Below are positions 5,944-55,185 of a DNA stretch of 64,000 nt, piece by piece. Within the stretch, counting starts at the first letter, position 1. Every line of letters starts with the position of its first letter. The notes under the pieces were generated by a model, which saw only the letters and a program-made list of their open reading frames with translations, searched no databases and was not told the DNA's origin. The stretch is from Candidatus Cloacimonadota bacterium. Lineage in GTDB: Bacteria; Hydrothermota; E44-bin80. Location: contig SOIS01000073.1 of NCBI GenBank assembly GCA_004375965.1, forward strand, positions 14,802-78,801, in the 5' to 3' direction. The position numbers were made by a program, and so were the translations under genes.

Positions 5944-6942
5944 TTACTTAAACCAACCCTCTTTTTTTAATTTATCTATACTATCAGGCTTCTTTCCTTT
6001 GGTAATCCTGTACACCTCTTTAAGTTCTTCTATTTCCTTTTTTTTGTAATTCTCAATATGTCTTGATTCCTGGGTGTAAAGAAGTTGGTTCTTTTTGTAA
6101 AAGGGTCTTTTAATTATCCCAAAGACAATATTTGCTACAAGAAAAAGTATAGCTCCGGTCCATAATAATACATTAATGATAGCCTCTATGGAAATCTTAA
6201 TAGGTTTTCTCTCTTTCCTTCTCGGTTTAGCAACTACTGCAGTTTTTTCAATAACCCCGCCTTCAAGTAAGTTATAAAGGGCATGATATGTTCGAAACCT
6301 ACCAACTCCAGAAGATGCTACAACATCCGCAACACACATCTTCCCATCTATCAATTCAAGCACTACCTTTTCCTGTTCTCCCATTTCTATCGAAAGGCGA
6401 GGTCGTTTTTTTCTCCGAAAGACAATCTTGGAATCAGGGATTGATTTCTTTATTTTTGGCCACTCATCAATCCTCCTCATTCCTTCAATAATCAAGAACT
6501 GCGGGTTTACAAGAACACTGCACTTACTCTTGGAATATAACCGTTCGCCTAACCGAAACTTATACTCTCCTTTTTTCCATGTAAAGAGTTCGTCAACGAT
6601 CTCCTGTATTTTAAACTCTATAATTTTTTCCAGATCCTCTTTTGTCAGAACATTATTTTCTACAAGTTTATCAACAACAGGGATTCCTTTCTTTTTGGAT
6701 TCTCTATCAAACTTCTTTAACTCTTCCTTGGAAATTCTTCCTATGAGAACAAGATAATCACCAATGGGTTTCAATACACCTTTTTTATTATGTGAAGCAG
6801 AAGAGATCATCCCGTTTTCGAAACCGAGTGATATAATCTCTCTCTTGAATTGAAAGACAAGAACACCAGTCTTCCCCTGGGTATTAATTAACTGAAAAAC
6901 ATCAGCTACACCAAAATCCTTTATATTTCCTTCAAATGCCAT
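5944..6942 (-). CDS. DUF4388-like domain protein with C-terminal transmembrane segment
   Basis: N-terminus GNIKDFGVADVFQLINTQGKTGVLVF plus LELIDGKMCVADVV. One hydrophobic helix (ILFLVANIVFGII). Confidence 0.5.
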   Translation of the reverse strand: MAFEGNIKDFGVADVFQLINTQGKTGVLVFQFKREIISLGFENGMISSASHNKKGVLKPIGDYLVLIGRISKEELKKFDRESKKKGIPVVDKLVENNVLTKEDLEKIIEFKIQEIVDELFTWKKGEYKFRLGERLYSKSKCSVLVNPQFLIIEGMRRIDEWPKIKKSIPDSKIVFRRKKRPRLSIEMGEQEKVVLELIDGKMCVADVVASSGVGRFRTYHALYNLLEGGVIEKTAVVAKPRRKERKPIKISIEAIINVLLWTGAILFLVANIVFGIIKRPFYKKNQLLYTQESRHIENYKKKEIEELKEVYRITKGKKPDSIDKLKKEGWFK

Positions 6943-38440: not shown

Positions 38441-39295
38441 TCATCTGACTTCTGTCCCTATTCTACCTGTTTTAATAAGTTTCTCCTTTGCAAGTTGAGA
38501 CCATCTATTATGAGGATTTTCTTTCACCATCTCTTTCCATATTCTCTTTGCCTTCACCTCATTACCTTTCCCATAAAATGATAGTGCTAAATAATGTTTT
38601 GCCTCAAAAAGATTTGGTCCTATCTCTAATGCCCTCTCAAAGAAATGGATTGCATCATTATACATATTCCTTTCAAAATATATCAATCCAAGATAATAGT
38701 TTGCGTAGAGTGAAGCACTCGCATCCTTACCTGTTTTTATTACCTTTGAAAGGTGTTCTATCGCCTCTCCAAAAATCTTTTTCTTGTAGCAAATATATCC
38801 AAGATTATTTCTTGCCATCTCATCAGTTGGATGTATATTCAGAACTTTCTGGTAGAGAAGTAATGCATTATCAAATTTTTCTGTGTACATATATGCCCAC
38901 CCAAGGAGTTTCAAGACCTTCACATTGTTTGGAGCTTTCTTCAGAGCAGGCTCAAGAACCTTCTCTGCCTCAGCATAATCACCGGAGGCAATGAAATTCC
39001 ACCCTTTATCAATCAATGTTAAAATATCTGTTTTTGATATGCTCATTGATTGTACAAAACCTTTGAGTATCTCTTCTTTTTTTTGTTCTACTACTTTTTC
39101 CTTCTCATTAAGATATTCTTCCATTTTTTTCTCTATACGTTTGAGTCTCTCCCTGTAACTTTTTACAATATTATAAACATATTCGACCTTCTCAGCATAG
39201 AGTGAAGGTTTGTCACCAGATTTTGCTTCTTTAAGTTTTTCTTTGAGTTCGAGTATCAGTTTCTCAAAATTATCCATATTTTTTTCTTCCATCAT
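38441..39295 (-). CDS. TPR-repeat protein
   Basis: Coiled-coil N-terminus then multiple TPR repeats. Start overlaps cheB stop by 4 nt. Confidence 0.6.
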   Translation of the reverse strand: MMEEKNMDNFEKLILELKEKLKEAKSGDKPSLYAEKVEYVYNIVKSYRERLKRIEKKMEEYLNEKEKVVEQKKEEILKGFVQSMSISKTDILTLIDKGWNFIASGDYAEAEKVLEPALKKAPNNVKVLKLLGWAYMYTEKFDNALLLYQKVLNIHPTDEMARNNLGYICYKKKIFGEAIEHLSKVIKTGKDASASLYANYYLGLIYFERNMYNDAIHFFERALEIGPNLFEAKHYLALSFYGKGNEVKAKRIWKEMVKENPHNRWSQLAKEKLIKTGRIGTEVR

Positions 39296-40320
39296 CTTGT
39301 GAAATCTATTATCTCTTTTGCAATTTCACAAAGTGGAACAACTTTATCTACATAACCCGTCTTAATCGCTGCCTTGGGCATACCGAAAATTACAGATGTT
39401 GATGCATCTTCAACAATAACCTTACCTTTTGATTTTTTTACTTCGAATAAACCATCAGAGCCATCCTTGCCCATACCTGTAAGAACAACTGCAAGAACCC
39501 TATCGCCAAAACTTGCAAGAGACTTCAAGGTTATATCACAGGACGGTCTAACACCATGTTTTTTTGGTTTATTTGTTAAGAGAATCTTCCCATTCTGAGT
39601 AACTTCCATATGTTTATCGCCTGGTGCAACGTAAACCTTGCCCTCCTTTAACAACTCACCACCATTTGCTTCTTTAACATCGAGAGGTGAAATTTTATTA
39701 AGTCTTTCAGCAAGTAAAGGTGTAAATTGCTCTGGCATATGTTGAATAATAAGGATACAAGCATTCAGATTCTTAGGTAAGACTGAGAGGACAACACTGA
39801 GTGCTCGTGGTCCTCCTGTTGAAGTACATATTATGATAATCCTTCTATTAGAGCGAGATGGAGTATACTCAAAAGTACAAGCCTCATATTGCGGAAGACA
39901 TGTTAACTTCTCCCTTCTTATTGCTGAGGCACGAATAATCTTCTCAATAAGTTCTTTTCTAACTTCTCTCATATTAACCGAGATACTACCAGAAGGTTTT
40001 GAAACAAAATCAACAGCGCCAAGATTAAGTGCCTCAATGGTTTCTCTTGCACCGTCTTTTGTGTAAGCACTGAGCATCACAACAGGAACGGGGTGGACCC
40101 TCATGATGTTTTTTAAGAAATCAATTCCATTCATCACAGGCATTTCCATATCAAGAGTAACCACATCAGGATTTAGCGAAATAATTTTTTCTATACCCTC
40201 TTTGCCATCTCTTGCAGAGCCGATAACCTGTAACCTTGGGTCACTGTTAAGCATATCAGTTATGACATTTATCATTAGTATTGAATCCTCTATGATAATG
40301 ACGCGGATTTGTTTAGTCAA
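39292..40320 (-). CDS. cheB: chemotaxis response regulator protein-glutamate methylesterase
   Basis: REC domain (IIIEDS...DVVTLDMEMPVMNG) plus methylesterase domain (TSTGGPRAL, HMPEQFT). Confidence 0.85.
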   Translation of the reverse strand: MTKQIRVIIIEDSILMINVITDMLNSDPRLQVIGSARDGKEGIEKIISLNPDVVTLDMEMPVMNGIDFLKNIMRVHPVPVVMLSAYTKDGARETIEALNLGAVDFVSKPSGSISVNMREVRKELIEKIIRASAIRREKLTCLPQYEACTFEYTPSRSNRRIIIICTSTGGPRALSVVLSVLPKNLNACILIIQHMPEQFTPLLAERLNKISPLDVKEANGGELLKEGKVYVAPGDKHMEVTQNGKILLTNKPKKHGVRPSCDITLKSLASFGDRVLAVVLTGMGKDGSDGLFEVKKSKGKVIVEDASTSVIFGMPKAAIKTGYVDKVVPLCEIAKEIIDFTR

Positions 40321-40799
40321 ATCTCTTTGATCCCTTTCTTATATGACTTGACAACGACCTTACCGTTGGACAGATGGAAATCAACCGACCTACCCCAGCT
40401 TCCACCTGTATCCTTTGATAGCACACTTATTGAATGCTTTTTAAGAACCTCTATAGCAGCATTGACATTCTTCTGTCCGATTGAATTCTTAGTAAGCGTT
40501 GGGAACATGTTTGCACCGCCAACAAGTTTTGCAATGAGTCTTTCCTTCTTTGCACCCAAATCTTTAATCCTTTTGATAAGAATCTCAATCCCCGTGTCAG
40601 AAAATTTTGCAAGGTTTTCGTCACTTTTAGCAATTGACCTTGTGGGTAGAAGGAAATGATTCATTCCACCAATCTTCGTAAGAGGGTCATATAACATCAC
40701 AGCCACACATGAGCCTAATCCGTATGTACTTAGAATATAAGGACTTGAGCCTACTGCAATATCAGCTATCCTAACCTTTATTGTTTGAGTATTTAACAC
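40317..40799 (-). CDS. cheD: chemoreceptor glutamine deamidase CheD
   Basis: YGLGSCVAVMLYD...GGMNHFLLP. Confidence 0.8.
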   Translation of the reverse strand: MLNTQTIKVRIADIAVGSSPYILSTYGLGSCVAVMLYDPLTKIGGMNHFLLPTRSIAKSDENLAKFSDTGIEILIKRIKDLGAKKERLIAKLVGGANMFPTLTKNSIGQKNVNAAIEVLKKHSISVLSKDTGGSWGRSVDFHLSNGKVVVKSYKKGIKEI

Positions 40800-41596
40800 T
40801 TTCTATAAATCCTTTCCCGTGAATCAACTGTATTGAACAGTGATTTCGCTTCACCAACAAGGTATTCCACCTTTCCAAGAACTAAGAATGCTTTTTCGTT
40901 TAATCTATTGTAAATCATTGATAGGATTTTCTCCTGAAAAGTCTTCTCCATATAAATAAGTACATTTCTGAAAAGGACAAGGTCCAGCTCTTTTAATTCT
41001 ATATTTTCTTCTTCAATATCAAACCTTACAAATCTTACCTTCTCTTTTATCTTATCCAAAACACAAATCTTCTCATCTTTCTTAAAATACATATTAAGAA
41101 AATATTCTGGTGTTTCGTCAAAGACCTCATTTCTATAGCATCCAATTCGAGCAGTATTCAAGCTATCATTATCTATATCTGTTCCTATTACAGAAAATTG
41201 TGCAGATGATTGCCTTTCACTTAAAAACTTATCCAGAAGCATTGCAATAGTATAGCTTTCTTGTCCCGTAGCACATCCCGCACACCATACCTTAATTAAT
41301 CCACCTTTCCTTTCATTTTCTCTTAATATCTGAGGTAGAACAACCTCTTCAATTTTTCCAAAAGTTTCATAATTTCTAAAGAATTTTGAAACATTAATGG
41401 TAAGGGTTTTATGTAATAAACGTTGTTCTTTTGTATCCCGTTCAAGTAGTTTTGCATATTCAAGATATGAGTTTATTCTATTATATCTCATTCTAACCGC
41501 AATTCTTCTTTTTAGTGGTCTCTTTTTATATCTTTCCGGAAAGAAACCAAGTTTTTCAATCATCATCCTTTTTAATACCTCAAACTCTTCGTTCAT
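40793..41596 (-). CDS. cheR: chemotaxis protein methyltransferase CheR
   Basis: VWCAGCATGQESYTIAMLL (SAM-binding) and C-terminal VLFRNVLIY. Confidence 0.85.
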   Translation of the reverse strand: MNEEFEVLKRMMIEKLGFFPERYKKRPLKRRIAVRMRYNRINSYLEYAKLLERDTKEQRLLHKTLTINVSKFFRNYETFGKIEEVVLPQILRENERKGGLIKVWCAGCATGQESYTIAMLLDKFLSERQSSAQFSVIGTDIDNDSLNTARIGCYRNEVFDETPEYFLNMYFKKDEKICVLDKIKEKVRFVRFDIEEENIELKELDLVLFRNVLIYMEKTFQEKILSMIYNRLNEKAFLVLGKVEYLVGEAKSLFNTVDSRERIYRKC

Positions 41597-41708: not shown

Positions 41709-43283
41709 TCACTCACCTACCATCTCTATGTTCCTCTTTGCAATTTCATTCTGAGGATCGATTTCTAATGTTTTCTTCCATTGTTCAAGTGCCCTCACCT
41801 TCTGCCCCATCTTATAATAGATGTTTCCCATTTTAAGAAATATCTCCGCATTGCCGAGACCAGCATCTGTAATCATCTTAAAGGATTTCTGTGCTGAAGT
41901 GTATACTCCTTTTCTGTAATATAATTCACCGAGTCTTATTCGTGGTTCTATGTAATTGGGTGCCAAGTCAAGGGCTTTCTTATAATTTTCTTCTGCCTCC
42001 TCAAAATTTCCCACATTCTCTGTTATAACGCCCAGATTATAATAAAGTACTGGTATATCTGGTTCTTTTTTCATGATATACTTAATCTCACTGATTGCAT
42101 TTTTAAGATTCCCTGAAAGTACATTAATTAGTGCAAGAAAGAAATGGGGTAAAATCAGCTTATCATCTATCTTGAGTGCTTTTTCAAGATAATCCTTTGA
42201 GGCATTAAGGTCACCTTTCTTGAAAAGAATAATAGCCATATTTAATATAGGAATTCCTGATGACTTCATTTTCGATGCTTGCTTAAAAAACTCAAGTGCC
42301 TCATCTGTCCGATCCTTAACGCTGAGTATGTATCCAAGATTATTCATATACATTGGAACATCGGGGTTTTCTTTAATAAGTTTACGAAGCAGTTCTTCTG
42401 CTTCCTTATAATTCTTTGTCTTAATAAGAGTGACGGAGAGATAAAATCTTGCTTCATTATCTTTAGGATTTAACTTAATAATATGTTTGAATTCCCGCTC
42501 TGCCTCATCATAGAGTTGGGTTTTTAAGAATGCTATACCGAGATTTAGATGCTCTGTTATCTTTTCATCAATCCCAAGAGCAGCGATTCTTTCTATAATA
42601 GAACAGAATCCTCTCTGTACAAACGATGATACAATCTCTTTTGTTTCAAATGTATCAAAAGGAGAGAATTCAATAATAACCTCGAGTGTCTTCTCTCCGT
42701 CAATCAAAGAATAAACCTTTCTATCCTTCTCATTAAGACTTAAAATGTCATCATGGGACGCAGTTGGTTTTAGAATAGATGATTCCCTAAGAATATCAAG
42801 AGAAAATACTAAAAGTTCATCTACGTGTCTCGCACTCTCTAAGAGAAGACTCGCTGGATTAACTGCAACAATCTCATCATCAACATCTGCAAACCGTGGT
42901 TCAAAATTAAAGTAACCGTTTTCCCAGGTCATCATTGTAATAATTGTCTCCTTTATCTGGCGCCTTAAGTACTTAATAAGAGAATCTTCTCTAACAAATT
43001 TTTCTTTTAATAAGATTTTTCCTATCTTTTCACCAGTTCTCTTCTGCATCTCAAGTGCCCCGGAAAGCTGTTCTTCGGTCATCTCACCGGAAGCAACCAG
43101 AAGTTCGCCTATTCTGTTCTTTCTATTTATTAAATAACTATCAACGATGTTACCCTTAAAAAATGTAATAGAACCAAAATGTTCCTTTTCTGTTACTGTT
43201 AAAATACCTGTTTTAAGACCCATAGAAAGAAGTTGTATTACATCCGGAAGGCTTGCCTCTTTGAATGATCCTTTTATCGCCAT
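41709..43283 (-). CDS. DUF4388-like domain plus TPR-repeat protein
   Basis: N-terminus GSFKEASLPDVIQLLSMGLKTGILTV and SLIDGEKTLEVII. C-terminal half has about 7 TPR repeats. Confidence 0.6.
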   Translation of the reverse strand: MAIKGSFKEASLPDVIQLLSMGLKTGILTVTEKEHFGSITFFKGNIVDSYLINRKNRIGELLVASGEMTEEQLSGALEMQKRTGEKIGKILLKEKFVREDSLIKYLRRQIKETIITMMTWENGYFNFEPRFADVDDEIVAVNPASLLLESARHVDELLVFSLDILRESSILKPTASHDDILSLNEKDRKVYSLIDGEKTLEVIIEFSPFDTFETKEIVSSFVQRGFCSIIERIAALGIDEKITEHLNLGIAFLKTQLYDEAEREFKHIIKLNPKDNEARFYLSVTLIKTKNYKEAEELLRKLIKENPDVPMYMNNLGYILSVKDRTDEALEFFKQASKMKSSGIPILNMAIILFKKGDLNASKDYLEKALKIDDKLILPHFFLALINVLSGNLKNAISEIKYIMKKEPDIPVLYYNLGVITENVGNFEEAEENYKKALDLAPNYIEPRIRLGELYYRKGVYTSAQKSFKMITDAGLGNAEIFLKMGNIYYKMGQKVRALEQWKKTLEIDPQNEIAKRNIEMVGE

Positions 43284-43322: not shown

Positions 43323-45251
43323 TCACTCAAGATTATGGTCTTCAAAAATTCTTTCATTCAGGTATGGCCATCTTTGGTCAAGTTCAGAAAGTAATGTCTT
43401 CTCTTCCGTAGTTGATGGAACCTTTGGCTTTTCTTTTTTTCTCAGTTTCTTTTGCTTCTCAAGTACAAGTTTTTCAATACCAATACAAGCTGAAATGTTT
43501 TCCATTGTGAGTTCAAGATTCTCATCTATAACTTTCTTAATGATATTTGCCACACTTCTTTTTATATCTATGAACTTTCCAAAAAGATTTTTGCTAAGGA
43601 ATTCCTTTATTTCATCCGGTAAAGAAATCCGTTTACAAGTAAAAAGGCTAGTGATTATTACCCTCTTATCTTCTTCATCGAGTTGTTTAATTGGAACTAC
43701 AGTTCCTGATAATAAGAGCTCTTTATAATTATCTTCCAAATCTAACTCTTCTGGTGGTAACTTGGACGACACAACTAAGAGTTTTTTCTCCTCCTTAAAA
43801 TTGTCCAGAACAACAACAAAAAGTGATTTAGACTCCCCATCATTTACTACATTCTCAATATCATCTAAGAGGATGGTATCAATCCCCTTTAGTTTTTCAA
43901 TATACATATTTCTGGCATCTTCATCAAAAAGGTTTTTTATCTCAATTGTTAAAAAATTTGATGGAATATAGGTAATTATTTTCTCTGGATATAATGATTG
44001 CATCTTTTTAGTAAAAGCTATTAAAAGGTGTGTTTTCCCACATCCATCGTCTCCATAAATATAAATAGGGGAATTTACATCTTGTTTCTTTGATAGTCCC
44101 TTTTTCAAAACCTCATATACTTCTCTATTAGAATGTAAGATAACAAAGTTTTCAGTGGTTGACCTTGCACTAAGGAATTTATTATATTCTTCCTTTAATT
44201 TCCTTCTTTCCTCTACTTTTTTGAGTGTCCTTTCTATGTCAAAAATAGCATCCGGGTCAAAAAGATTCTTTTCTAAATATTCCCTTTCTTCCAGAGTAGT
44301 TGTCTTCTCCAACTCACCAAATATTTTCTGTAGTTCAATGAGTCTTTGAATACCCGATGTAAATGAGACAAACGCTTGTATTATACCATCTATGGGTCCA
44401 TCCATAGCTTCTTCTAATCTTCTTACATTAAACCCTTTCATTTTCCAGATATAAAGTTTTAACATGTATTCATTTTTTATTGCCATCGTGTCCTTTTGCT
44501 CAGTTGCGCCTTTATCAAAATCTTCTTTTAAATCCTTGACAAAATCAAAAAATTCCTTATCCTCCCCGGGAAATGGGGCTAACCTCCTGTCGGGTGGGAC
44601 TATCTCCTCCAGAGCAATATTATCCTTCACATTCTCAACTGTGATTTCCTTTGTAACATCTTTAAGAAGGTCAATCTTTTTAAGGACAGTCTCTATCTCC
44701 CTGATATCATAAAAAGGTAAACCAGAAAGGAAATGTATTACATCATCCTTCAACTCCATTCCAAAATCACTACTTATCATTTTGAATATCCTGGAAACAA
44801 GTTCTGGGTCAGGTTTAAATATCGGAACTGTAAGTCCTTTCTTAATAAGAGAAACAAGCTGTTCAGATATGCCGAGTTCTTCCGGTGGGAGCAGAGATGT
44901 TATATAAACCTGTTTTTTTGCTGTAATAAAAGAATTAATGAAAGTATATAAATCCATACCCTTCTTTACCTCATCAGGCAAAAGATGGAGGTTTTCAAGG
45001 ATAAAGACAGAACCAACAGTCTTTGGAATGGATTTAAGTTCAGTACAATCTAAACAGAGAACATCCTCATCTTTAAGAATCTCTTTTACCGAACTTACAA
45101 GATGAGTTTTTCCAAGTCCTTTCTTTGAATAAATAAATAGTGGGTTTATATCGACCCCACGATTTTTTAGTGTTCTTTTCACAGAAAGGTATGCAAGTTG
45201 ATTTGCTCTACCAATTGCAAAATTGTTAAAAGTGTATTTTCTGGCTATCAT
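43323..45251 (-). CDS. tandem DnaA-type AAA+ ATPase protein (two DnaA domain-III-like modules, no DnaA domain IV)
   Basis: Module 1: YTFNNFAIGRANQLAY...NPLFIYSKKGLGKTHL...KQVYITS...GLTVPIFKPDPE. Module 2: SPIYIYGDDGCGKTHLL...ILLDDIENV...KKLLVVSSKLPPEEL...GTVVPIKQLDEE...ISLPDEIKEFLS. Confidence 0.6.
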   Translation of the reverse strand: MIARKYTFNNFAIGRANQLAYLSVKRTLKNRGVDINPLFIYSKKGLGKTHLVSSVKEILKDEDVLCLDCTELKSIPKTVGSVFILENLHLLPDEVKKGMDLYTFINSFITAKKQVYITSLLPPEELGISEQLVSLIKKGLTVPIFKPDPELVSRIFKMISSDFGMELKDDVIHFLSGLPFYDIREIETVLKKIDLLKDVTKEITVENVKDNIALEEIVPPDRRLAPFPGEDKEFFDFVKDLKEDFDKGATEQKDTMAIKNEYMLKLYIWKMKGFNVRRLEEAMDGPIDGIIQAFVSFTSGIQRLIELQKIFGELEKTTTLEEREYLEKNLFDPDAIFDIERTLKKVEERRKLKEEYNKFLSARSTTENFVILHSNREVYEVLKKGLSKKQDVNSPIYIYGDDGCGKTHLLIAFTKKMQSLYPEKIITYIPSNFLTIEIKNLFDEDARNMYIEKLKGIDTILLDDIENVVNDGESKSLFVVVLDNFKEEKKLLVVSSKLPPEELDLEDNYKELLLSGTVVPIKQLDEEDKRVIITSLFTCKRISLPDEIKEFLSKNLFGKFIDIKRSVANIIKKVIDENLELTMENISACIGIEKLVLEKQKKLRKKEKPKVPSTTEEKTLLSELDQRWPYLNERIFEDHNLE

Positions 45252-45438: not shown

Positions 45439-46776
45439 TTACAGCATTTCATCTACGAGACCTGTATGGATGTTTCCTTTAATAAAATCTTTGTTTTCGA
45501 GTAACTTCAGGTGGAAAGGTATCGTTGTTTTAATTCCTTCAATTACAAATTCTTTTAATGCTCTGCGTAGGCGAGTAATAGCCTCCTCTCTGTTATTTCC
45601 ATAGGATATCAATTTTGCAATAAGCGAGTCATAATACCTTGGGATAGAATAACCAGAGTAAAGATGTGTATCAACCCTTACGCCTGGGCCACCAGGTATA
45701 TGAAACCCATCAATCCTTCCTAAAGATGGTAAGAAATTTTTTTGAGGATCCTCTGAGTTTATTCTTGCCTCTATAGCACATCCTCTCAATTTAATATCCT
45801 TTTGCGAAAAGGGTAGTTTTTCGCCCGACGCAATCTTTATCTGTTCCTTAACCAGATCTATACCTGTGACAAACTCTGTAACTGGATGCTCAACCTGTAT
45901 CCTTGTGTTCATTTCCATGAAGTAGAAATTCCCTTTTTGATCCATTATGAACTCGACGGTCCCAGCATTTTTATATCCTATCTTCTCCATTCCTTTAACA
46001 GCATATGCCCCTAACTTTTTCCTCTTCTTCTCACCAACAGCTGTTGATGGACTCTCTTCAAGTAACTTCTGATGCCTTCTCTGTACCGAACATTCTCTTT
46101 CTCCGAGATGAACTGTATTTCCATAATTATCTGCTAAGATCTGAAACTCAATGTGTCTTGGATTTTTAATGAACTTTTCTATGTAAAGACTCCCATTACC
46201 GAAAGCTGCTTCTGCTTCAGTACGTGCTATCTTAAAAAAATTTTTGAATTCAGATTCAGCGTTAACAATTCTCATGCCCTTACCACCACCACCAAAAGCA
46301 GCTTTTATTATAACAGGGAAACCAATATCTTTAGAAATCTTCAGTCCTTCACTTATCTGTGAAACGGACTTCTTGCTTCCTGGGATGACAGGAATACCAG
46401 CATCTTCCATTTCCTTTTTGGCACAAACCTTATCACCCATTTTTCTAATAATTTCGAAAGGAGGACCTATAAATTCTATGCCATTTGATTCACACATTTC
46501 AGCGAATTGGGGATTTTCAGCAAGGAACCCATACCCAGGATGGATTGCCTCACAGTTTGTAACAAGACAGGCACTAATTATCTCTTTTGCACTGAGATAA
46601 CTATCTTGGCTTTGAGGTGGTCCAATACAGACAGATTGGTCTGAGAAACGTACATGAAGCGAATCTTCGTCTGCCTCTGAATGAACAGAAACAGTCTCTA
46701 TACCAAGTTCCTGACAGGCTCTTATTATCCTTAGAGCAATCTCTCCTCTGTTTGCAATAAGAACCCTTTTGAACAT
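45439..46776 (-). CDS. accC: acetyl-CoA carboxylase biotin carboxylase subunit
   Basis: [22 protein letters not shown]-grasp motifs, [14 protein letters not shown]. Confidence 0.9.
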
Positions 46777-46781
46777 TCAAA

Positions 46782-47888
46782 CTATCCTCTACCTTCAAAA
46801 TCTGTCCAACCTGCTTCTGAAGTACCTTTTATTCCTCGTAATTTGAGGTTAAATTCATCAGGATTAGTAACATTTGCCATTGCATCTTCATAGCTAATTA
46901 CACCTTCGCTGTATAATTTCATTATTGACTGGTCAAAACTTTGCATATGATACTGTGAGCCTTCCTCAATCGCAGTAGGAATCAGTAGTGTTTTAACTGG
47001 ATCAAGGATATACTCCTTTATGGTCGGTGTTACAATCATTATTTCAACAGCAGGTACTCTGCCTTTCTCATCTGCTCTTGCAAGGAGTCTTAAGGAGATA
47101 ACCCCAATCATTGTTGCGGAGAGAAGAACCCTTATATGCTGCTGTTGATGTGGTGGATAAAAGGAAATAATTCTATTTATTGTCTCGCTTGCATTCAATG
47201 TATGAAGTGTACTTAAAACCAGGTGCCCTGTATCTGCTGCTTTCAATGCAACATCCATAGTATCCTTATCCCTGATCTCACCAATAAGAATCACATCAGG
47301 ATCCTGACGCATAACATGTTTTAGCGCATTTGCAAAACTATGAGTATCCATCCCAAGTTCTCTCTGGCTGATAACGCTCTTTTTATCCCTGAACAGAAAT
47401 TCAATGGGGTCTTCAATGGTAATGACATTTTTACTTATATTCTCATTGATATGTTCAATCATTGCAGCAAGGGTTGTTGACTTTCCACTTCCTGTGGTTC
47501 CTGTACAGAGGATCAATCCTCTGTGCTTCAGCGCAATATCTTTGAGAACCTGGGGAACATTAAGTTCATCTATTCTTTTTATAGAAGGTGGAATCGTTCT
47601 CATAGCAATGGCAACACTTCCCCTCTGCATATAGACATTTACCCTGAAACGGGCAAGCCCTGAAACACCAATAGCAAAGTCAAGCTCCTTCGTTCGTATA
47701 AATTCCTCCTGCTGGTCTTTCGTCATAATCTGTTGTGCTGTTTTTCTTAATTCTTCAGGGCTTAAAGGCTCTTCTTTGATAACCCTCAACTTTCCATCAA
47801 TTCTCAGAACAGGAGGAGAACCAGCCTTCAGATGAAGATCGCTTGATTCCTCTTTAACCATCCTTTCTAAAAGATTTTTTAGATTCAT
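46782..47888 (-). CDS. pilT: type IV pilus retraction (twitching motility) ATPase PilT
   Basis: GLILCTGTTGSGKSTTLAAMIEHIN (Walker A), FRVNVYMQRGSVAIAMRTIP. Confidence 0.85.
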   Translation of the reverse strand: MNLKNLLERMVKEESSDLHLKAGSPPVLRIDGKLRVIKEEPLSPEELRKTAQQIMTKDQQEEFIRTKELDFAIGVSGLARFRVNVYMQRGSVAIAMRTIPPSIKRIDELNVPQVLKDIALKHRGLILCTGTTGSGKSTTLAAMIEHINENISKNVITIEDPIEFLFRDKKSVISQRELGMDTHSFANALKHVMRQDPDVILIGEIRDKDTMDVALKAADTGHLVLSTLHTLNASETINRIISFYPPHQQQHIRVLLSATMIGVISLRLLARADEKGRVPAVEIMIVTPTIKEYILDPVKTLLIPTAIEEGSQYHMQSFDQSIMKLYSEGVISYEDAMANVTNPDEFNLKLRGIKGTSEAGWTDFEGRG

Positions 47889-47898
47889 AATATATTCT

Positions 47899-48339
47899 TT
47901 ATTCTGGTTTAACTAATAAAAGCTTCTGATTAAATTCTACAGGGTCATCATTCTTTGCAAGAATATCCACAATAGTCCCCCTCACGTCAGATTCTATCTC
48001 ATTCATTATCTTCATTGCTTCAACTATACATACAATCTGACCTGGAACAATACGGTCTCCAATCTCTACATACGGAGGAGCATCAGGCGCTGGTGCTTTA
48101 TAAAAAGTCCCTACCATCGGAGCCTGAATTGCGACAACCCCTGTCATCTCGCTTTTTTCCTCAATCTTCGTTTCTTCTGCTAAATCCTGAACTGGGTTTT
48201 TTGTCGCCCTGGGTACTTCCTTTATCTTTTTTGATTCCTTTCTGATTCGTATGGATGTTCCTAATCTCCTTATTTCAATCTCTTCGACATCCATCTCTTC
48301 AATAAGTTCAATAAGCTTTTTAATGAATGAGATTTTCAT
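47899..48339 (-). CDS. accB: biotin carboxyl carrier protein
   Basis: C-terminal biotinyl domain with EAMKIMNEIESD. Confidence 0.8.
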   Translation of the reverse strand: MKISFIKKLIELIEEMDVEEIEIRRLGTSIRIRKESKKIKEVPRATKNPVQDLAEETKIEEKSEMTGVVAIQAPMVGTFYKAPAPDAPPYVEIGDRIVPGQIVCIVEAMKIMNEIESDVRGTIVDILAKNDDPVEFNQKLLLVKPE

Positions 48340-48623: not shown

Positions 48624-50858
48624 TCAAATCAATTCAAACTCAAACCCTCTCTCCTTGAAGATTATTAAGCAAGCATCTACCACCTCAGGAGCATAAAGTA
48701 TACCCCGATTCTCTGAGATTTCTTCCAATGCGGTATTTATGCTGTAAGCCGGGCGGTATGGGCGGTGTGAAGACATTGCTTCAACAACATCTGCCACTGC
48801 CAGGATTTTTGCTTCCACAAGAATTTCATCTCCACTTAGACCCTGAGGATACCCAGACCCATCCAACCTTTCATGATGTTGTAACACGGTTTGAGCGACT
48901 GGCGAAGAAAATTCTACTGTTTTCAAAATGTCATACCCAACCTGAGCGTGAGTCTTGACTAATACCATTTCTATTTCGCTCAGTTTAATAGGTTTGTTGA
49001 GAATCTCGGCTGCAATATGTACCTTGCCAATATCGTGCAGTATACCCGCTACACGAATCCCCTCAATTTTCTCCTCAGAAAGCCCCATCTCTTTTGCTAT
49101 AGCACAGGCAAGCTGGGTCACACGCCGTTGATGACCTGCTGTATAAAGATCCCTCTTTTCGACAGTCGATGCCAGGGCATTAACCGTTCCCTCAAGGGTT
49201 CTTTGTAATTTCCAAAAACTTCGTTTCAGTTCTTCCTCCGCCCGCTTGCGCTCAGTGATATCCTTCATCGTTCCCATACTTGCTATCTTACCTCTATAAT
49301 TGATAACTCCGACATTCATATTGACTATGACTCTGGTTACCCTATCCTTGTGTAACATGCAGAATTCGTATTCACGTGGGATATCTTCCCCTGCCTGCCT
49401 TCGATGGTAGCGATCTGCAACCATCTCTGAATCCTCTGGTGCAATGAGTTCTCGAAAGTCCATCCCAATAATCTCCTCCACCGTGTAGCCAACCATTCTT
49501 GCAAATGCCTCATTGGCAAATTTCATTTCAGCATCCTGGATAATAAAGACACCGTCCTGAATATTGTCAATTAATGTTCGATATTTTTCTTCAGAGAGTC
49601 GCAGCGCTTCCGCTGCCCTTTTCTGCTCAGTTATGTCCATTACCATCCCGATGGTTCCCTGGAACTCCTTTTTATCATTTATCCAAGGAGTAGCGGAAAC
49701 CCTTATGTTTCTTAGTTCACCGTCTTTTCGCCTCATTACTGTTTCATATTGACTGGAAACTCTGTTTTTCCTTTTAGCAGATCCCTGTAATATTTTTTGG
49801 AGTTCTTCTTCCGAAGAGATCAATTCCCGCAGATTCATACCAATAATTTCTTCTTGGGAATAGCCAAGAATATTAGAAAACCAGGGATTGGCAAAAATAA
49901 TATTCTCATTGGTGTCCACAATACACATACCTTCCTGAATAGTTTCCACCAAAGAGCGGTATCGTCTTTCGCTTTCCCGCAAAGCCTCCTTCGCTTGCTT
50001 CCTCTCTGTAATATCTCCCAAAACACCATCAAAGTATAGTATTTCTCCCTTCTCGTCGGCAATAGCCCGAGCGTTTAGGGAGCCCCAGAAAACCGTCCCG
50101 TCCTTTCTCTTCAACTGAACCTCATAATTGGAGATCTCGCCAGACGAACTTAACGTTTTAATGAACCTCTTACGGTCATCCGGGTTGAGATAGAGATCGC
50201 CGACATGAACTTTGGACATCGCCTCTGGTTTCTTATATCCGAACATCTTAGCCAGGGCTGGATTCGCCGAAAGGATACGTCCACCAGGGTTTGCTGAAGT
50301 ACGGAACACCCCGACTGGAATGTTGGACTGTAGTGTCCGATATTGCTTTTCCGACTCACGTAGCGCCTTCTCCGCCTTTTCTCGCTCGCTGATGTCCCTG
50401 CAAATAACCCGCAACTCTTTCGGTTCACCATCTTCATCAAAAATCAGTTGGGTTCTTCCCTGTACCCAGATAGTTGAACCATCTTTCCGTACCTTGTGAA
50501 ATTCCAATGCACTTTTCTTTAGTTTTTTACTAAAGATTTCGGAAATCTGCTTTTTAACCCTTTTTAAATTATCATTATGTACAATTTTCCACACAGGTTC
50601 ACCGATTAATTCCTCTTTGCTGTATCCCAGATATTCTGCACCGTACTGATTGACAGATGTCATCGTTCCATCTGGTTTGATGGAGAAATACATATCTGGA
50701 GCATGATCGTATAAATCTTGATATTGTTCCTCTCTCTTCTTTAGTGCTTTCTCAGCCCGCTTGCGATCGGTTTCTAATTTTTCAAATTCAGCAACTCTTC
50801 GGCGCGCTTCTACCAATTCATTTATGAGTTGCTCTTTTGTTTTGTTTTTGTCTTTCAT
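48624..50858 (-). CDS. multi-PAS HD-GYP domain protein (probable c-di-GMP phosphodiesterase)
   Basis: N-terminal coiled coil, about four PAS repeats, then HQRRVT...ILHDIGK...HHERLDGSGYP. Confidence 0.8.
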   Translation of the reverse strand: MKDKNKTKEQLINELVEARRRVAEFEKLETDRKRAEKALKKREEQYQDLYDHAPDMYFSIKPDGTMTSVNQYGAEYLGYSKEELIGEPVWKIVHNDNLKRVKKQISEIFSKKLKKSALEFHKVRKDGSTIWVQGRTQLIFDEDGEPKELRVICRDISEREKAEKALRESEKQYRTLQSNIPVGVFRTSANPGGRILSANPALAKMFGYKKPEAMSKVHVGDLYLNPDDRKRFIKTLSSSGEISNYEVQLKRKDGTVFWGSLNARAIADEKGEILYFDGVLGDITERKQAKEALRESERRYRSLVETIQEGMCIVDTNENIIFANPWFSNILGYSQEEIIGMNLRELISSEEELQKILQGSAKRKNRVSSQYETVMRRKDGELRNIRVSATPWINDKKEFQGTIGMVMDITEQKRAAEALRLSEEKYRTLIDNIQDGVFIIQDAEMKFANEAFARMVGYTVEEIIGMDFRELIAPEDSEMVADRYHRRQAGEDIPREYEFCMLHKDRVTRVIVNMNVGVINYRGKIASMGTMKDITERKRAEEELKRSFWKLQRTLEGTVNALASTVEKRDLYTAGHQRRVTQLACAIAKEMGLSEEKIEGIRVAGILHDIGKVHIAAEILNKPIKLSEIEMVLVKTHAQVGYDILKTVEFSSPVAQTVLQHHERLDGSGYPQGLSGDEILVEAKILAVADVVEAMSSHRPYRPAYSINTALEEISENRGILYAPEVVDACLIIFKERGFEFELI

Positions 50859-51111: not shown

Positions 51112-54100
51112 ATGGAAAGAAAGATAAACGAAACGGGTCTTTTTGAAGGAAAAATAAAAACCATCCTCGGATTATTGAAACAACATAACGATACTATATT
51201 GAGAAATAATACTGAACTCGTCTCACTGTTAAAGAGGAGAGAAACCGCTCTTCGTAACCTGACAGAGGGTGAATATTCAATATCAGAAAATCTTGATAGT
51301 ATGAGAAAGGAGACCCATAATCTGTTTGCATCTACCCAGATAATCTCTGAAGCAACAGAAGTTGCCCTATCTGCACTTGAAGAACAAAAAAAGACCTGGG
51401 AAACAAAGTACTCCAATCTCGATAACGCTACAACAGGTTTCAGTAGAATAATTGGAACAATCTCAGAATCAATCTACAGCCTGAGAGAACTTGGTGAAAG
51501 AATAAGAAAGATAGAAATTGCTATGGATAAAATACATAATATTTCACATCTAACCCGCGGTGTTTCAAGGAATGCAGGGATTAAAGCATATCATGCTGGA
51601 GAAAAGGGCAAGGGTTTCGAAGTAATAGCAAGGGAGCTATCACAGTTAACCAAAGAATCACAAAGAATTACTGTTACGGTGCCAGAAGCGATAAAAAGAT
51701 TTCAAACCCAAACAAAGGAAGCAGTGAATTTTATAACACAACTAACACACAATATTGAACTGGTAAAGAAAAATACAGAAGATATGAAACTGAAACTTAA
51801 ATCAAGCGAACAGTTCTTAAGCGAGTTTATGGAGGTCTCCAACATAATCCATAACTCTGTTGATAAGCAGGTAGGAGTAGAAGAGGAATTAGGAAGGGAA
51901 GAAGAAACTATTTCAAAATTCTCTACGCAGTTGTTGATTGAAACAGGAAGTATCACAGCTCTTGAGCAGAGCCAGAGTTCCCTTTCACTTATTATTAATA
52001 AATTTGTAGAAAACTCTTCTCAAATCATATCTTCCCTTGAGCAAAAGGGGGATGAGTCCTTCGATGTCAATATAAGAAAATCTTCAATAAATAATGATAA
52101 ACTAAAAGAATATATGCTCAGAGTATCTTCATTGACATCCCAGATAAAAGAGATCTCACTTGAGGCAAAGAGGCACTTTGAATCACAGAAGGAGACGGTA
52201 TCACAGTTTCTTACCATAATAAATGAAAACAAGATGGTTAAGCAAGAAATCAGCAAGAAAACCAACTCATTAATGGAAATATTAAAAGAGGTCACGAAAC
52301 TCTTTTTAGAAACAAATGATCTGTCAGAGAAAATAATTTCAATCATAAATGAAATGATACATCTTGTTGAAAGGACAGACAGTTATTTTTCTTCCCTTGA
52401 AAAAGAGATAGAGTGGGTAGTTGAAATAGTCAGGAAACTCAAGAAATTCTCTAAAAGAAGTAATCTTCTTTCCCTCTATGCATCAATAGAGACGGCAAGA
52501 TCCTTTGAATTTAAGAAAGAACTCGATGTGATTGTAAATCAGATAAAAGAATTATCAAAACAGTCATCCAGTTTATTGAGAACAATAGAGGAATCCGTTA
52601 ATAAGGCAAAATCTTCACTTAAAAATGTTCATAAGATTATGCTCGAGACCTCTGAAAAACTTGAAAATACCAAAGATGAATTCAAACCTATGCTTAAAGA
52701 GTTTCATAATCTTATTGAGTCAACTGAGAAACTGAATGAAATAGTTAATGAGATGCTGAATGCCCTTGAGAAACAAAAAGGTCTTGAACAAAATCTTATC
52801 TCTCTCGAGGAAACACTCTCCTCAAAGATAGACGAAAATATACTCATGAACAGAGAACTGGGGAAGGTAACGGAGAAAACAAGCTCAGTTGTATCAGAAC
52901 TATTAAATGAACTCGGGGAATTTGAGAAGGATTTAACTCCTTTTTTACCTTCTATTCAGAAATTGCCAAAAACAGTCTTAAGGCTGAGATTATCTGGAGA
53001 CATTATTGATATTGACCCATCCAAAACAACTGATGCAACATCCAACAGAGTCAGCACAACTATCTTTAAGGGTCTTGTTGAACAGGGCATTGATGCAAAT
53101 GTTATTCCCTCAATTGCAAGAAGGTGGAAACTCTCTGAGGATGGGCTTGTATGGAAATTTACATTACGAGACGACGTACGGTTTCATAATGGAGAAGCAC
53201 TCAATGCGAGCGATGTGAAGTTTACAATTGAACATCTTCTTTCAGGCCCACACAGTTATATGTTTGATATGATAAAAGGAGCAAAGGATTTCATAAGAAA
53301 TAAGAACAAGGATATAGAAGGAATAAAGATTACTGGTAATTACAACATTGAACTAAAACTAAACCATCCCTATATTCCATTTCTGAGAAATCTTGGGGTT
53401 ACCTGTGGAGGTATTGCAAAGGAGACAAAAAATGGACTTATCGGTGCCGGCCCATTTAGGTTAAAGAAATGGGAAAAAGGAAATAGAATTATTCTTGAAG
53501 CATTTGATGATTACTTTGGTAAAAAACCGTACTGTGATGAGATACATTTCATTATCTGTCATGATGAGAAAGAGACGTTTAAAAGATTTTCAGAAGGAGA
53601 ATTTGACATAATAGATATTCCCAGTTCAATCGAAAAAGGAGAATTGCTACAGAAAAAAGAAGTAAATGAAATCAACATAGATTCTTTATTTATCTATGAT
53701 ATTTATTATGTTGGTATTAATGTAAAACTACAAACCCCTTTCAAAGAAAATATGGTCAGACAAGCATTGAACTATGCTGTTGACAGAAATGAGTATATTG
53801 AAAAAATTGCACAGGATAGAGGCATACCTGCAAAGGGCATCTTTCCCCCAAATTTTTCTACATATAATAAGGCACTTACTGGATACGAGTATAACCCTGA
53901 GAGAGCAAAAACATTATTAAAAAATGCTGGTTTCCCCAATGGTTTACCAGAGGAATACCAATTTGACATCAGGGATTCAAAGACTGCAGTCATGGGTGCA
54001 GAAATCTTAAAAAAATATCTCTCAGAAATTGGCATACATTTGAAACTCAATCTACTCCCCTGGAAAGAATTACTCAGAAATGTTCATAGCGGTAAATCCT

Positions 54101-54429
54101 TGCTTTTTGCACTTGGCTGGGCAAATGATAACGGAGACCCTGATAGTTTCCTATACCCACTCTTTCATTCAAAGAATTGGGGCGAACCAGGAAATACCAC
54201 ATTTTATAAAAATAAAACTGTGGACAGACTGCTTGACAAAGCGGCAGCATTAACAGACCATTATAAAAGGCAGATGCTATATCAACAGGTAGAACAGATT
54301 CTCGTTGATGATGCACCCTGGATCTTCTTATATCACTCAAAACATACCTTCGCATGCCAACCCTATATAAGAGGATACTCAAAAAGTCCACTCGCTTCGG
54401 AAAGGCTTGAGGATGTCTGGTTCTACTAG
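51112..54429 (+). CDS. fusion protein: duplicated MCP-like signalling region plus C-terminal solute-binding protein family 5 domain (no signal peptide or TM)
   Basis: AYHAGEKGKGFEVIARELSQLTKES (matches MCP [25 protein letters not shown]) and degenerate second copy SNLLSLYASIETARS. C-terminal SBP_bac_5-like VWKFTLRDDVRFHNGEALNASDVKFTIE and GAGPFRLKKWEKGNRIILEAFDDYFGKKPY. Confidence 0.6.
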   Translation: MERKINETGLFEGKIKTILGLLKQHNDTILRNNTELVSLLKRRETALRNLTEGEYSISENLDSMRKETHNLFASTQIISEATEVALSALEEQKKTWETKYSNLDNATTGFSRIIGTISESIYSLRELGERIRKIEIAMDKIHNISHLTRGVSRNAGIKAYHAGEKGKGFEVIARELSQLTKESQRITVTVPEAIKRFQTQTKEAVNFITQLTHNIELVKKNTEDMKLKLKSSEQFLSEFMEVSNIIHNSVDKQVGVEEELGREEETISKFSTQLLIETGSITALEQSQSSLSLIINKFVENSSQIISSLEQKGDESFDVNIRKSSINNDKLKEYMLRVSSLTSQIKEISLEAKRHFESQKETVSQFLTIINENKMVKQEISKKTNSLMEILKEVTKLFLETNDLSEKIISIINEMIHLVERTDSYFSSLEKEIEWVVEIVRKLKKFSKRSNLLSLYASIETARSFEFKKELDVIVNQIKELSKQSSSLLRTIEESVNKAKSSLKNVHKIMLETSEKLENTKDEFKPMLKEFHNLIESTEKLNEIVNEMLNALEKQKGLEQNLISLEETLSSKIDENILMNRELGKVTEKTSSVVSELLNELGEFEKDLTPFLPSIQKLPKTVLRLRLSGDIIDIDPSKTTDATSNRVSTTIFKGLVEQGIDANVIPSIARRWKLSEDGLVWKFTLRDDVRFHNGEALNASDVKFTIEHLLSGPHSYMFDMIKGAKDFIRNKNKDIEGIKITGNYNIELKLNHPYIPFLRNLGVTCGGIAKETKNGLIGAGPFRLKKWEKGNRIILEAFDDYFGKKPYCDEIHFIICHDEKETFKRFSEGEFDIIDIPSSIEKGELLQKKEVNEINIDSLFIYDIYYVGINVKLQTPFKENMVRQALNYAVDRNEYIEKIAQDRGIPAKGIFPPNFSTYNKALTGYEYNPERAKTLLKNAGFPNGLPEEYQFDIRDSKTAVMGAEILKKYLSEIGIHLKLNLLPWKELLRNVHSGKSLLFALGWANDNGDPDSFLYPLFHSKNWGEPGNTTFYKNKTVDRLLDKAAALTDHYKRQMLYQQVEQILVDDAPWIFLYHSKHTFACQPYIRGYSKSPLASERLEDVWFY

Positions 54430-54528: not shown

Positions 54529-55185
54529 ATGAAAGCATTATTAACTGGTGGAATATTTTCCTGGATAGTTATACTGTGGAGTATAATATCCATTATATTT
54601 ATCATCATTATGTATAAACGTTCCCCAAAACATATCCTGATAATCCTGGGAACATTTCTTGGAAGTATAATATTTTCACTTGGAGTAACTGGTCTATTTG
54701 CAGGCTTAAGCAGGACCCTCAGATTATCGGCAAGTATAGCATATCCGGAAATTGAAAATTTGGTAATTGAAGGAAACAGAATGGCAAGAATACCATTTTC
54801 TATTGGAACAGTTGTAATCATTATATACTTTGTGATCCTCTCTATAATCGCAACAATAAAAAAGGGGATTCTAAAAAAATGGTCACTGTGGATTGGATGG
54901 TTAATCTTTCTCTTTTTTACCTTTGTCCTCTCCTGGCTTAGACATTCACTCAATGTTAACCTTATAAAGGGCTTTGGGAAAATTACTACTTTAAGTGACA
55001 CAATTCCTGAAACAATCTATCCTTTTATAAGGACAGGAAGATTGGCAGTCTTCACCTCTCTATTACTCTCCCTTATCTATCTCCTTGTTGCAATCCTCAT
55101 TACAATCCGAAAAGGTAAGAATAAAAAGATTCAAACAGCCGAGGCTACAGTTAACACAGATGACAAACCAGAAACTATAGACTAA
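54529..55185 (+). CDS. hypothetical polytopic membrane protein
   Basis: 218 aa with about 6 hydrophobic helices. No family recognised. Confidence 0.4.
   Translation: MKALLTGGIFSWIVILWSIISIIFIIIMYKRSPKHILIILGTFLGSIIFSLGVTGLFAGLSRTLRLSASIAYPEIENLVIEGNRMARIPFSIGTVVIIIYFVILSIIATIKKGILKKWSLWIGWLIFLFFTFVLSWLRHSLNVNLIKGFGKITTLSDTIPETIYPFIRTGRLAVFTSLLLSLIYLLVAILITIRKGKNKKIQTAEATVNTDDKPETID

Follow-up and report, generated by a model that had tools for sequence, protein, structure and literature searches.

Chemoreceptors, also called methyl-accepting chemotaxis proteins (MCPs), tend to be viewed as symmetric homodimers that sense the outside of the cell, and family-5 solute-binding proteins (SBPs) as extracellular accessories of transporters. 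SgrR-type transcription factors, which are cytoplasmic, use a family-5 SBP domain as an intracellular input module. In Frz-type systems, as in Myxococcus, a soluble MCP, the cytoplasmic FrzCD, belongs to a Che-like system and controls pilus or gliding polarity. H. pylori TlpD is also cytoplasmic, as are further soluble MCPs whose sensors (CZB, PilZ) are C-terminal; all carry their input domain after the signalling hairpin, and SBP_bac and Phosphonate_bd domains C-terminal to MCPsignal are already among the Pfam architectures (Russell et al, 2013; PMC3604760 Fig. 8). In the Tap-DppA pair of E. coli (listed in PMC8050422), a DppA-type family-5 binding protein feeds peptide information to an MCP. 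V. cholerae DosM, of the F9 class, is soluble, carries two MCP signalling domains in tandem per chain and forms an extended rod with a tip at each end that bridges two baseplates (PMC7534058; PMC9321776). Here we analyse a gene in a stretch of 64,000 nucleotides (nt) from a Candidatus Cloacimonadota bacterium (assembly GCA_004375965.1, contig SOIS01000073.1, positions 14,802 to 78,801 of the forward strand), hereafter the window, which encodes a soluble MCP with tandem signalling hairpins and a C-terminal SBP_bac_5 domain, hereafter the receptor. We consider it likely, with a probability of roughly 0.65, that this protein is a cytoplasmic peptide-sensing MCP in which a complete DppA/GbpA-like domain, lacking a signal peptide, has been joined C-terminally to the tandem hairpins; it probably senses the internal peptide pool of the cell. 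Of most interest here are the cytoplasmic use of a DppA-like sensor by an MCP, and a possible single-chain, asymmetric receptor "dimer"; DosM, TlpD, SgrR and the architecture figure of 2013 are the precedents.

51112..54429, plus strand: receptor gene, encoding a soluble MCP of two tandem hairpins that ends in an SBP_bac_5 domain (Pfam, NCBIfam, hydropathy)

The receptor open reading frame (ORF) begins with ATG and continues without interruption for 1105 amino acids (aa), with the coordinates, strand and length that an earlier note, made from the sequence of this DNA alone, had given. The HMMER check which that note proposed gave matches above the curated cutoffs for both parts of the protein. 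SBP_bac_5 (PF00496) matches residues 664–1024 (E 1.8e-80, 271 bits, cutoff 32.4), and MCPsignal (PF00015) matches two stretches, the better of them at residues 117–257 (E 8.5e-24, 84.8 bits, cutoff 34.6). Among the NCBIfam models, DppA, Opp, GsiB and NikA match at residues ~630–1100 and MCP models at residues 59–273 and ~386–570. The E-values of the Pfam matches, and of the internal duplication given below, are far beyond chance.

No transmembrane segment or signal peptide was identified in the whole protein, in agreement with the earlier note: the maximum Kyte-Doolittle average over 19 residues (KD19) is 1.07, and the N-terminus is charged (MERKINETGLFEGKIK). Free-standing SBPs of ~530 aa, which served as a positive control in the same scan (L063–L080), all have a hydrophobic N-terminus, with KD19 values of 2.0–3.0 at residues 3–19. 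An in-frame stop lies three codons 5' of the receptor ATG; a longer N-terminus is therefore impossible, which rules out a signal peptide hidden on an extended N-terminus. By hydropathy, none of the fusion proteins of the receptor family has a transmembrane-like segment or a hydrophobic N-terminal leader. With neither a transmembrane segment nor a signal peptide, the receptor falls into topology class IV, that of the cytoplasmic chemoreceptors. Because the signalling hairpins must meet CheA and CheW in the cytoplasm, the whole receptor, SBP included, would be located there.

SBP_bac_5 domains are normally exported and the order of the fusion is unusual, which might point to a frameshift or misassembly between two genes, one for a soluble MCP and the other for an ordinary periplasmic SBP. 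The reading frame, however, is unbroken, and the junction lies exactly at the equivalent of the mature DppA N-terminus, with no remnant of a signal peptide. Moreover, several phyla have the same fusion, with a connector of conserved length, and the independent assemblies that contain it number at least 54. This conservation in at least 54 loci refutes an artefactual origin, to which we assign a negligible chance. None of the outcomes that the earlier note had named as contrary to its proposal, namely a lack of a significant MCPsignal match, a signal peptide or transmembrane segment, or a frameshift, was observed.

The search for homologues of the same architecture, also proposed in the earlier note, returned at least 54 full-length members. 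A word-indexed search identified 17 full-length receptor clusters at 62–99% identity and three distant relatives at 26–30%, all of which carry PF00015 plus PF00496. A scan of one genome per GTDB species gave ~60 loci with the fused MCP-SBP architecture, from Cloacimonadota, candidate division WOR-3, Stahlbacteria, Edwardsbacteria, UBP2 and unclassified metagenome-assembled genomes (MAGs). The family statistics given below (n=54) are based on the full-length ORFs of 1039–1142 aa taken from these loci. Four full-length Cloacimonadota loci encode proteins with 64–77% identity to the window receptor, and many genomes contain two or three receptor paralogues. An exhaustive phmmer search with residues 1–620 against 1.84 billion representatives recovered the whole double hairpin in one stretch in only ~17–20 clusters (50% identity), nearly all of 1048–1137 aa; ordinary MCPs match one hairpin only (E ~1e-10 to 1e-13). 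Variants include a 1605-aa protein in which the double hairpin is followed by two tandem SBP_bac_5 domains (P0147/L040) and an 824-aa single-hairpin MCP-SBP5 protein in a Firmicutes-like context (P0021); an MCP-CZB protein (P0034) is also among the relatives. Some members carry the JGI auto-annotation [quoted passage not shown]. In the literature searched on this architecture and on chemotaxis in Cloacimonadota and related phyla we found no characterisation of the family and no chemosensing study, only the architecture figure in PMC3604760. Judged by these sequences, the receptor family is small, conserved and uncharacterised, and occurs in several candidate phyla. The unusual order of SBP and MCP parts described in the earlier note thus stands as far as the C-terminal, cytoplasmic SBP is concerned, but it is not unique, given this small family, the figure of Russell et al (2013) and the precedent of SgrR for a cytoplasmic SBP_bac_5 domain.

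52975..54426, plus strand: complete SBP domain, DppA/GbpA-like, cluster C, residues 622–1105, without signal peptide (alignment to DppA, fold comparison)
54118..54150, plus strand: predicted ligand-contact motif W1003-ANDNGDPDS-F1013 (alignment to 1dpp)

The C-terminal region, in which the earlier note had recognised about 480 aa of SBP_bac_5, spans residues 622–1105. Its closest solved relatives by sequence are the glutathione-binding GbpA/HbpA (3m8u, E 2.5e-62) and E. coli DppA (1dpp, E 8.8e-60), and its identity to DppA and GbpA is 27–28%. The alignment begins at about residue 20 of mature DppA, which places the fusion junction essentially at the mature SBP N-terminus. The predicted domain gives TM-scores of 0.83–0.88 to open or unliganded structures as against ~0.66 to closed, liganded DppA. 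The SBP model therefore has an open cleft, and the ligand cleft about which the earlier note had asked is kept. The receptor thus shows the profile match and the complete bilobed fold with a cleft that characterise SBP_bac_5 proteins, but not their extracytoplasmic location, since no signal peptide or lipobox is present: the domain begins at about residue 622 of a soluble protein that has no hydrophobic leader. The linkage to ABC-transporter permease and ATPase genes, the second trait by which working SBPs are defined, was likewise not seen in the loci covered (listed below). In the Tap-DppA pair, a free periplasmic SBP docks on a transmembrane receptor; the domain described here, without a signal peptide and fused to the C-terminus of a soluble receptor, must by contrast sample the cytoplasm. 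TlpD and its like differ in having one hairpin and small sensors, whereas here a two-lobed SBP of 485 residues follows a duplicated hairpin with asymmetric tips. SgrR has an N-terminal DNA-binding output, not an MCP hairpin, and its sequence similarity to the receptor is low; the NCBIfam SgrR model gives a weak match at residues 621–821 (E 6.7e-9, 35 bits, cutoff 476). The NCBIfam DppA equivalog scores 206 on the receptor, far under its cutoff of 1005.

The DppA motif GWTGDNGDPDNF corresponds to GWANDNGDPDSF in the receptor, where D1006 aligns with DppA D408, which we take to be the residue that binds the alpha-amino group of the dipeptide; the ligand carboxylate is presumably bound by DppA R355. 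PDB entry 8z1z names the pair R383/D436 (precursor numbering). W1003, D1006, D1009, P1010, D1011 and F1013 are invariant in 54/54 members. In the GbpA alignment, R954 occupies the position of the carboxylate-binding arginine. This arginine is present in 19/20 members of the clade linked to a chemosensory operon (see below), and the paralogue clade outside the operon has S, A, V or T in its place, the pattern that would be expected of receptors that differ in specificity.

The conservation of this domain also bears on whether it binds a ligand at all. The SBP could be vestigial or could act as a protein-docking module that clamps the peptide tail of a partner or serves in localisation, with signalling being constitutive or driven by another input. 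Such a role would fit the lack of ABC-transporter genes nearby (no BPD_transp_1 or ABC_tran genes were identified beside the receptor gene in the window or in loci L081, L083 and L086), and the conserved small membrane protein encoded after the Cloacimonadota receptor genes could be the docking partner. The SBP is, however, the most conserved large region of the protein, with 38% cross-phyla identity as against 16–17% in the bodies of the hairpins. Its peptide-contact motif W..D.GDPD.F does not vary among the 54 members, the residue at the carboxylate site differs systematically between the paralogue clades, and the modelled fold is complete with an open cleft. We consider a vestigial or docking role improbable.

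51145..52038, plus strand: MCP hairpin 1, residues 12–309, helices 12–161 and 163–309 (AlphaFold2; Tm14 alignment)
52051..52944, plus strand: MCP hairpin 2, residues 314–611, helices 314–463 and 465–611 (AlphaFold2; TM1143 alignment; internal duplication)
51544..51666, plus strand: tip 1, canonical highly conserved domain, residues 145–185, turn A162–E164 (clade and family conservation)
52450..52572, plus strand: tip 2, degenerate highly conserved domain, residues 447–487, turn S464–F467 (family conservation)
52945..52974, plus strand: short, Pro-containing connector, residues 612–621, from helix 4 to the first SBP strand (AlphaFold2 DSSP)

Residues 12–611 are predicted to be all-helical, with a heptad periodicity that is unbroken along all four helices, and so correspond to the long coiled-coil region of the earlier note. 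The two halves of this region align collinearly (residues 140–300 with 442–603, 26% identity, E 3e-7) at an offset of 302 residues, which places the tips at E164 and E466. In hairpin 1, residues 83–244 match the soluble T. maritima Tm14 (3G67, E 4e-10) gapless through the tip, and in hairpin 2 residues 340–593 (~254 residues) match the cytoplasmic domain of TM1143 (2CH7, E 1.2e-9); the PDB matches of the helical region also include Tsr. On alignment and structure prediction alike, the helical part consists of a pair of MCP hairpins, both complete and equal in length at ~300 residues each. The "duplicated MCP-like segments" of the earlier note are thereby refined: the duplication holds, and its units are complete hairpins, more than repeats of a motif. 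The connector is short throughout the family, with 37–46 residues between alignment columns 590 and 636 and only a few residues in many WOR-3 members.

The near-canonical MCP signature that the earlier note had located at residues ~140–185 coincides with tip 1 (RNAGIKAYHAGEKGKGFEVIARE, with AYHAGEKGKGFEVIARELSQLTKES at residues 159–183), for which we used the canonical tip pattern N-x2-I-x-A-x2-A-G-E-x-G-x-G-F-x-V-V-A-x-E. Its consensus in the 54 members is RNAxIxA[FY]HAGxxG[RK]G[FL]xV[IV]AxE, in which N154, G166 and G168 are invariant (54/54), and its identity is 92–96% within the clade and 47% across phyla. The second, degenerate copy, which had been expected about 300 aa later, is tip 2 (SNLLSLYASIETARS...ELSKQS at residues 450–485). 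It has the family consensus LLxL[YF]AxIExAR..., with E460 and L481 invariant in 54/54 members and a cross-phyla identity of 37%. All 54 members have lost the GxGF turn from this tip, and all have Y or F at the position of Y456, where the canonical Asn is expected. Within the helical region, conservation across the 54 members is highest at the tips, and the difference between the two tips is identical throughout. Taking the relevant positions to be equivalent to Tsr N381, E385, R388 and F396, we find the following residues.

Tsr N381 equivalent: N in tip 1, Y/F in tip 2
Tsr E385 equivalent: K/T/R in tip 1, E in tip 2
Tsr R388 equivalent: H in tip 1, R in tip 2
Tsr F396 equivalent: F (or L) in tip 1, L (or I) in tip 2

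The equivalences of the Asn and of the GxGF turn are borne out by the Tm14 alignment.

The final AlphaFold2 model of the whole chain (27-sequence alignment, mean pLDDT 87.0, pTM 0.70) shows the four helices, 12–161, 163–309, 314–463 and 465–611, to be near-identical in length. Its turns coincide with both sequence-defined tips, with turn 1 at residue 162, and the helices are packed side by side into one intramolecular four-helix bundle. The pLDDT climbs in parallel in all four helices from 70–79 at the tips to 94–97 at the base. The lengths of the arms co-vary between the two hairpins across the family (Spearman 0.67–0.75, for members that are not phylogenetically independent). We tentatively propose, at odds somewhat short of even, that the receptor is a single-chain pseudo-dimer, in which the two hairpins pack into an intramolecular four-helix bundle with one monomeric Venus-flytrap sensor and so replace the MCP homodimer. 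The tasks that a symmetric dimer tip performs would then be split: the Asn and the GxGF turn are kept in tip 1, the Glu and Arg of the N-helix in tip 2, and the two together would form one asymmetric face toward CheW/CheA and neighbouring receptors. If this is true, the receptor would be the first example in nature of an asymmetric receptor "dimer" whose halves are covalently linked. Two properties of the modelling tell against this topology. A first model, built from 18 sequences, had turn 1 at residue 189, which the deeper alignment corrected to 162, and monomer AlphaFold2 is biased toward burying helices intramolecularly.

Equal hairpin lengths would also suit a symmetric sandwich array. 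The hairpins could be laid end to end in a homodimeric rod with a tip at each end, bridging the two CheA/CheW baseplates of a sandwiched cytoplasmic array and carrying the SBPs mid-rod. A tandem of MCPsignal domains in a soluble receptor is what marks out V. cholerae DosM (PMC7534058; PMC9321776), and two SBP-free DosM-like proteins (P0091 and P0072) are among the weaker relatives of the receptor helical region. These two proteins, however, have two fully canonical tips, as DosM-type receptors do, whereas tip 2 of the receptor is without GxGF and Asn in 54/54 members. DosM systems have a triple-CheW partner, and 98% of DosM homologues are without sensor domains (PMC9321776); the receptor family has a 485-aa sensor, and the CheW of its operon consists of one 138-aa domain, in place of the F9-class triple CheW. 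AlphaFold2 also sets the receptor hairpins side by side, in contrast to the extended rod. An end-to-end rod therefore appears unlikely to us.

Likely partners of the receptor can be read from other genomes. A cheW-cheY-cheA-cheC/X operon with the receptor gene in first place occurs in ~27 loci, which belong to WOR-3, Stahlbacteria and unclassified MAGs. The cheW gene (138 aa, single domain) begins 9–12 nt 3' of the receptor gene and is followed in the same orientation by cheY, a 500-aa P2-less cheA, cheC/X, and the genes of an 800-aa TPR protein and a TPR-Roadblock/LC7 protein. In the WOR-3 locus L054 the operon continues with genes for a DnaA-like ATPase and a PATAN(DUF4388)-TPR protein, and with cheR. 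As these are genes of the Cloacimonadota cluster described below, they tie that cluster to the same system. The WOR-3-type operon (L083 8076-14585; L012, L013, L015 and others) is of unusual make-up, including an MglB-like Roadblock/LC7 protein. It suggests a polarity- or motility-control system, not classical flagellar chemotaxis. Genes of this kind adjoining the loci of the family encode Roadblock/LC7 (MglB-like) proteins, an Arf/MglA-like GTPase, PATAN-TPR proteins and PilT. FrzCD differs from the receptor in having a single hairpin and no SBP sensor, and beyond the Che core the likeness to Frz is one of analogy.

Based on these observations, we hypothesise the following sequence of events. 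A short peptide of the cytosol whose amino terminus is free, such as a di- or tripeptide or a gamma-glutamyl peptide, would enter the cleft and close the two SBP lobes. The invariant D1006 would hold this amino terminus and, in the operon-linked clade, R954 the carboxylate. On closure the helical bundle would pack differently, since no more than a few residues separate the SBP from helix 4, and the canonical tip 1, together with CheW, would shift the kinase activity of CheA. CheR, CheD and CheB would adapt the receptor. In the pilus-bearing, peptide-fermenting Cloacimonadota, control of type IV pili or polarity would be a likelier output than flagellar rotation. According to a pangenome study (bioRxiv 10.1101/2021.10.08.463351), Cloacimonadota are fermenters of amino acids and peptides that generally encode type IV pili but flagella only rarely.

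Several points weigh against a cytoplasmic, peptide-sensing chemoreceptor. Its location is one that we infer from hydropathy and from the contrast with free SBPs. R954 is present in only 34/54 members, and domains of the SBP_bac_5 family also bind nickel, opines, sugars and haem. The coiled-coil and methylation check proposed in the earlier note gave a divided result, with continuous heptads but no match in the receptor to the strict methylation-site consensus [ASTG]2-x2-[EQ]2-x2-[ASTG]2; three conserved half-sites, E91-E92, E285-Q286 (kept in 15/15) and E566-E567, were identified. No CheA or CheW is encoded in the window or within 10 kb of its Cloacimonadota relatives, and the 120 best-scoring relatives of the CheA from the WOR-3 operon included no identifiable Cloacimonadota CheA. 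This search returned the WOR-3 clade, and the next full-length group was archaeal.

The nearest full-coverage CheA relatives outside the WOR-3 clade (P0255; L087/L088) lie on an archaeal contig with genes for TBP, V-type ATPase, archaeal primase and a ubiquitin-like system, which carries an F1-like cheW-cheY-cheB-cheA-cheC-cheD/cheR cluster. As to docking of the adaptation enzymes, the C-terminus of the receptor (…EDVWFY) is the last SBP strand and does not fit the CheR/CheB-docking pentapeptide xWxxF.

39292..40320, minus strand: cheB, REC and methylesterase (Pfam; NCBIfam CheB 409 bits, cutoff 293)
40317..40799, minus strand: cheD, receptor deamidase (Pfam CheD 1.9e-30; synteny)
40793..41596, minus strand: cheR, methyltransferase (Pfam CheR, CheR_N; synteny in L002–L004 and L081/82)
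41709..43283, minus strand: PATAN (DUF4388/PatA_N)-TPR protein of the conserved cluster (also in the receptor operon of WOR-3 locus L054)
43323..45251, minus strand: DnaA-like AAA+ ATPase, 641 aa, of the conserved cluster
46782..47888, minus strand: PilT/PilU-family type IV pilus ATPase (NCBIfam pilT_fam 469 bits, cutoff 319; synteny)
48624..50858, minus strand: 4xPAS-HD-GYP protein with four PAS and HD_5/HD domains and an HHERLDGSGYP motif (Pfam)
54529..55185, plus strand: 218-aa membrane protein with 5–6 transmembrane segments (tblastn, 47–53% identity in L002–L005 and L081/82; hydrophobic stretches)

In the window, cheR, cheD and cheB lie 9.5–10.8 kb from the receptor gene, close to the 10 kb of the earlier note, and the linkage is real in that the synteny is conserved in Cloacimonadota. 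The gene order in the window, L002–L004 and L081/82 is TPR, cheB, cheD, cheR, PATAN-TPR, DnaA-like ATPase, accC, PilT, accB and then the divergent receptor gene, so that the PilT ATPase is a conserved divergent neighbour of the receptor in Cloacimonadota. The gene of the divergently transcribed PAS-HD-GYP protein, to which the earlier note had drawn attention, is indeed present, but it stands between accB and the receptor in the window alone and is absent there in L002–L004 and L081/82. The distance from the receptor to PilT is accordingly 3.2 kb in the window and 0.65–0.77 kb in those loci. The adjacency of receptor and PAS-HD-GYP genes is probably incidental and outside the conserved system, and we rejected a functional link between them as a conserved feature because the remaining Cloacimonadota loci do not have the gene at that position. 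The window encodes another HD-GYP paralogue at 2113-3738 on the minus strand, 34% identical to this neighbour over the HD-GYP domain.

Flanking the PilT ATPase gene are accC (biotin carboxylase, 45439-46776) and, on its other side, accB (BCCP, 47899-48339, with an AMKIM biotinylation motif), all on the minus strand. The accC-PilT-accB order also occurs in L081 and L082 and is thus conserved in Cloacimonadota. In L081, a gene at 6276-6869 (minus strand) for an Arf/MglA-like small GTPase of 196 aa lies between those of the DnaA-like ATPase and accC; the window has no such gene at the corresponding site, only a gap of 188 nt.

Directly 3' of the receptor gene, and on the same strand in all Cloacimonadota loci, is the gene of the 218-aa membrane protein, which matched no Pfam or NCBIfam family. 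No terminator-like site was found between the two genes on the plus strand, and the promoter and terminator scans gave nothing above shuffled expectation. This protein is a possible operon partner of the receptor, and may act as the membrane partner or anchor of a soluble protein. Elsewhere in the window, the 570-aa ORF at 35055-36770 (minus strand) matched no Pfam family, and neither tRNA genes nor any Rfam family at the gathering threshold were identified.

The receptor family departs from both of the usual views set out above, as it uses a complete DppA-like domain as the cytoplasmic input of a soluble receptor. It suggests that the internal peptide pool guides the behaviour of uncultured peptide fermenters among the bacteria (Cloacimonadota, WOR-3 and relatives). 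Such a metabolism- or transport-dependent form of taxis would suit organisms that ferment peptides and amino acids. If the single-chain bundle is true, the family would provide a natural experiment on a question of long standing, namely how both subunits of a receptor dimer contribute, in an asymmetric way, to trimer formation, CheA/CheW binding and signalling, and a handy monomeric scaffold for structural work and biosensor design. In many genomes this family appears to supply the receptor that the chemosensory operon encodes, and its study is therefore a way to approach how several candidate phyla behave.

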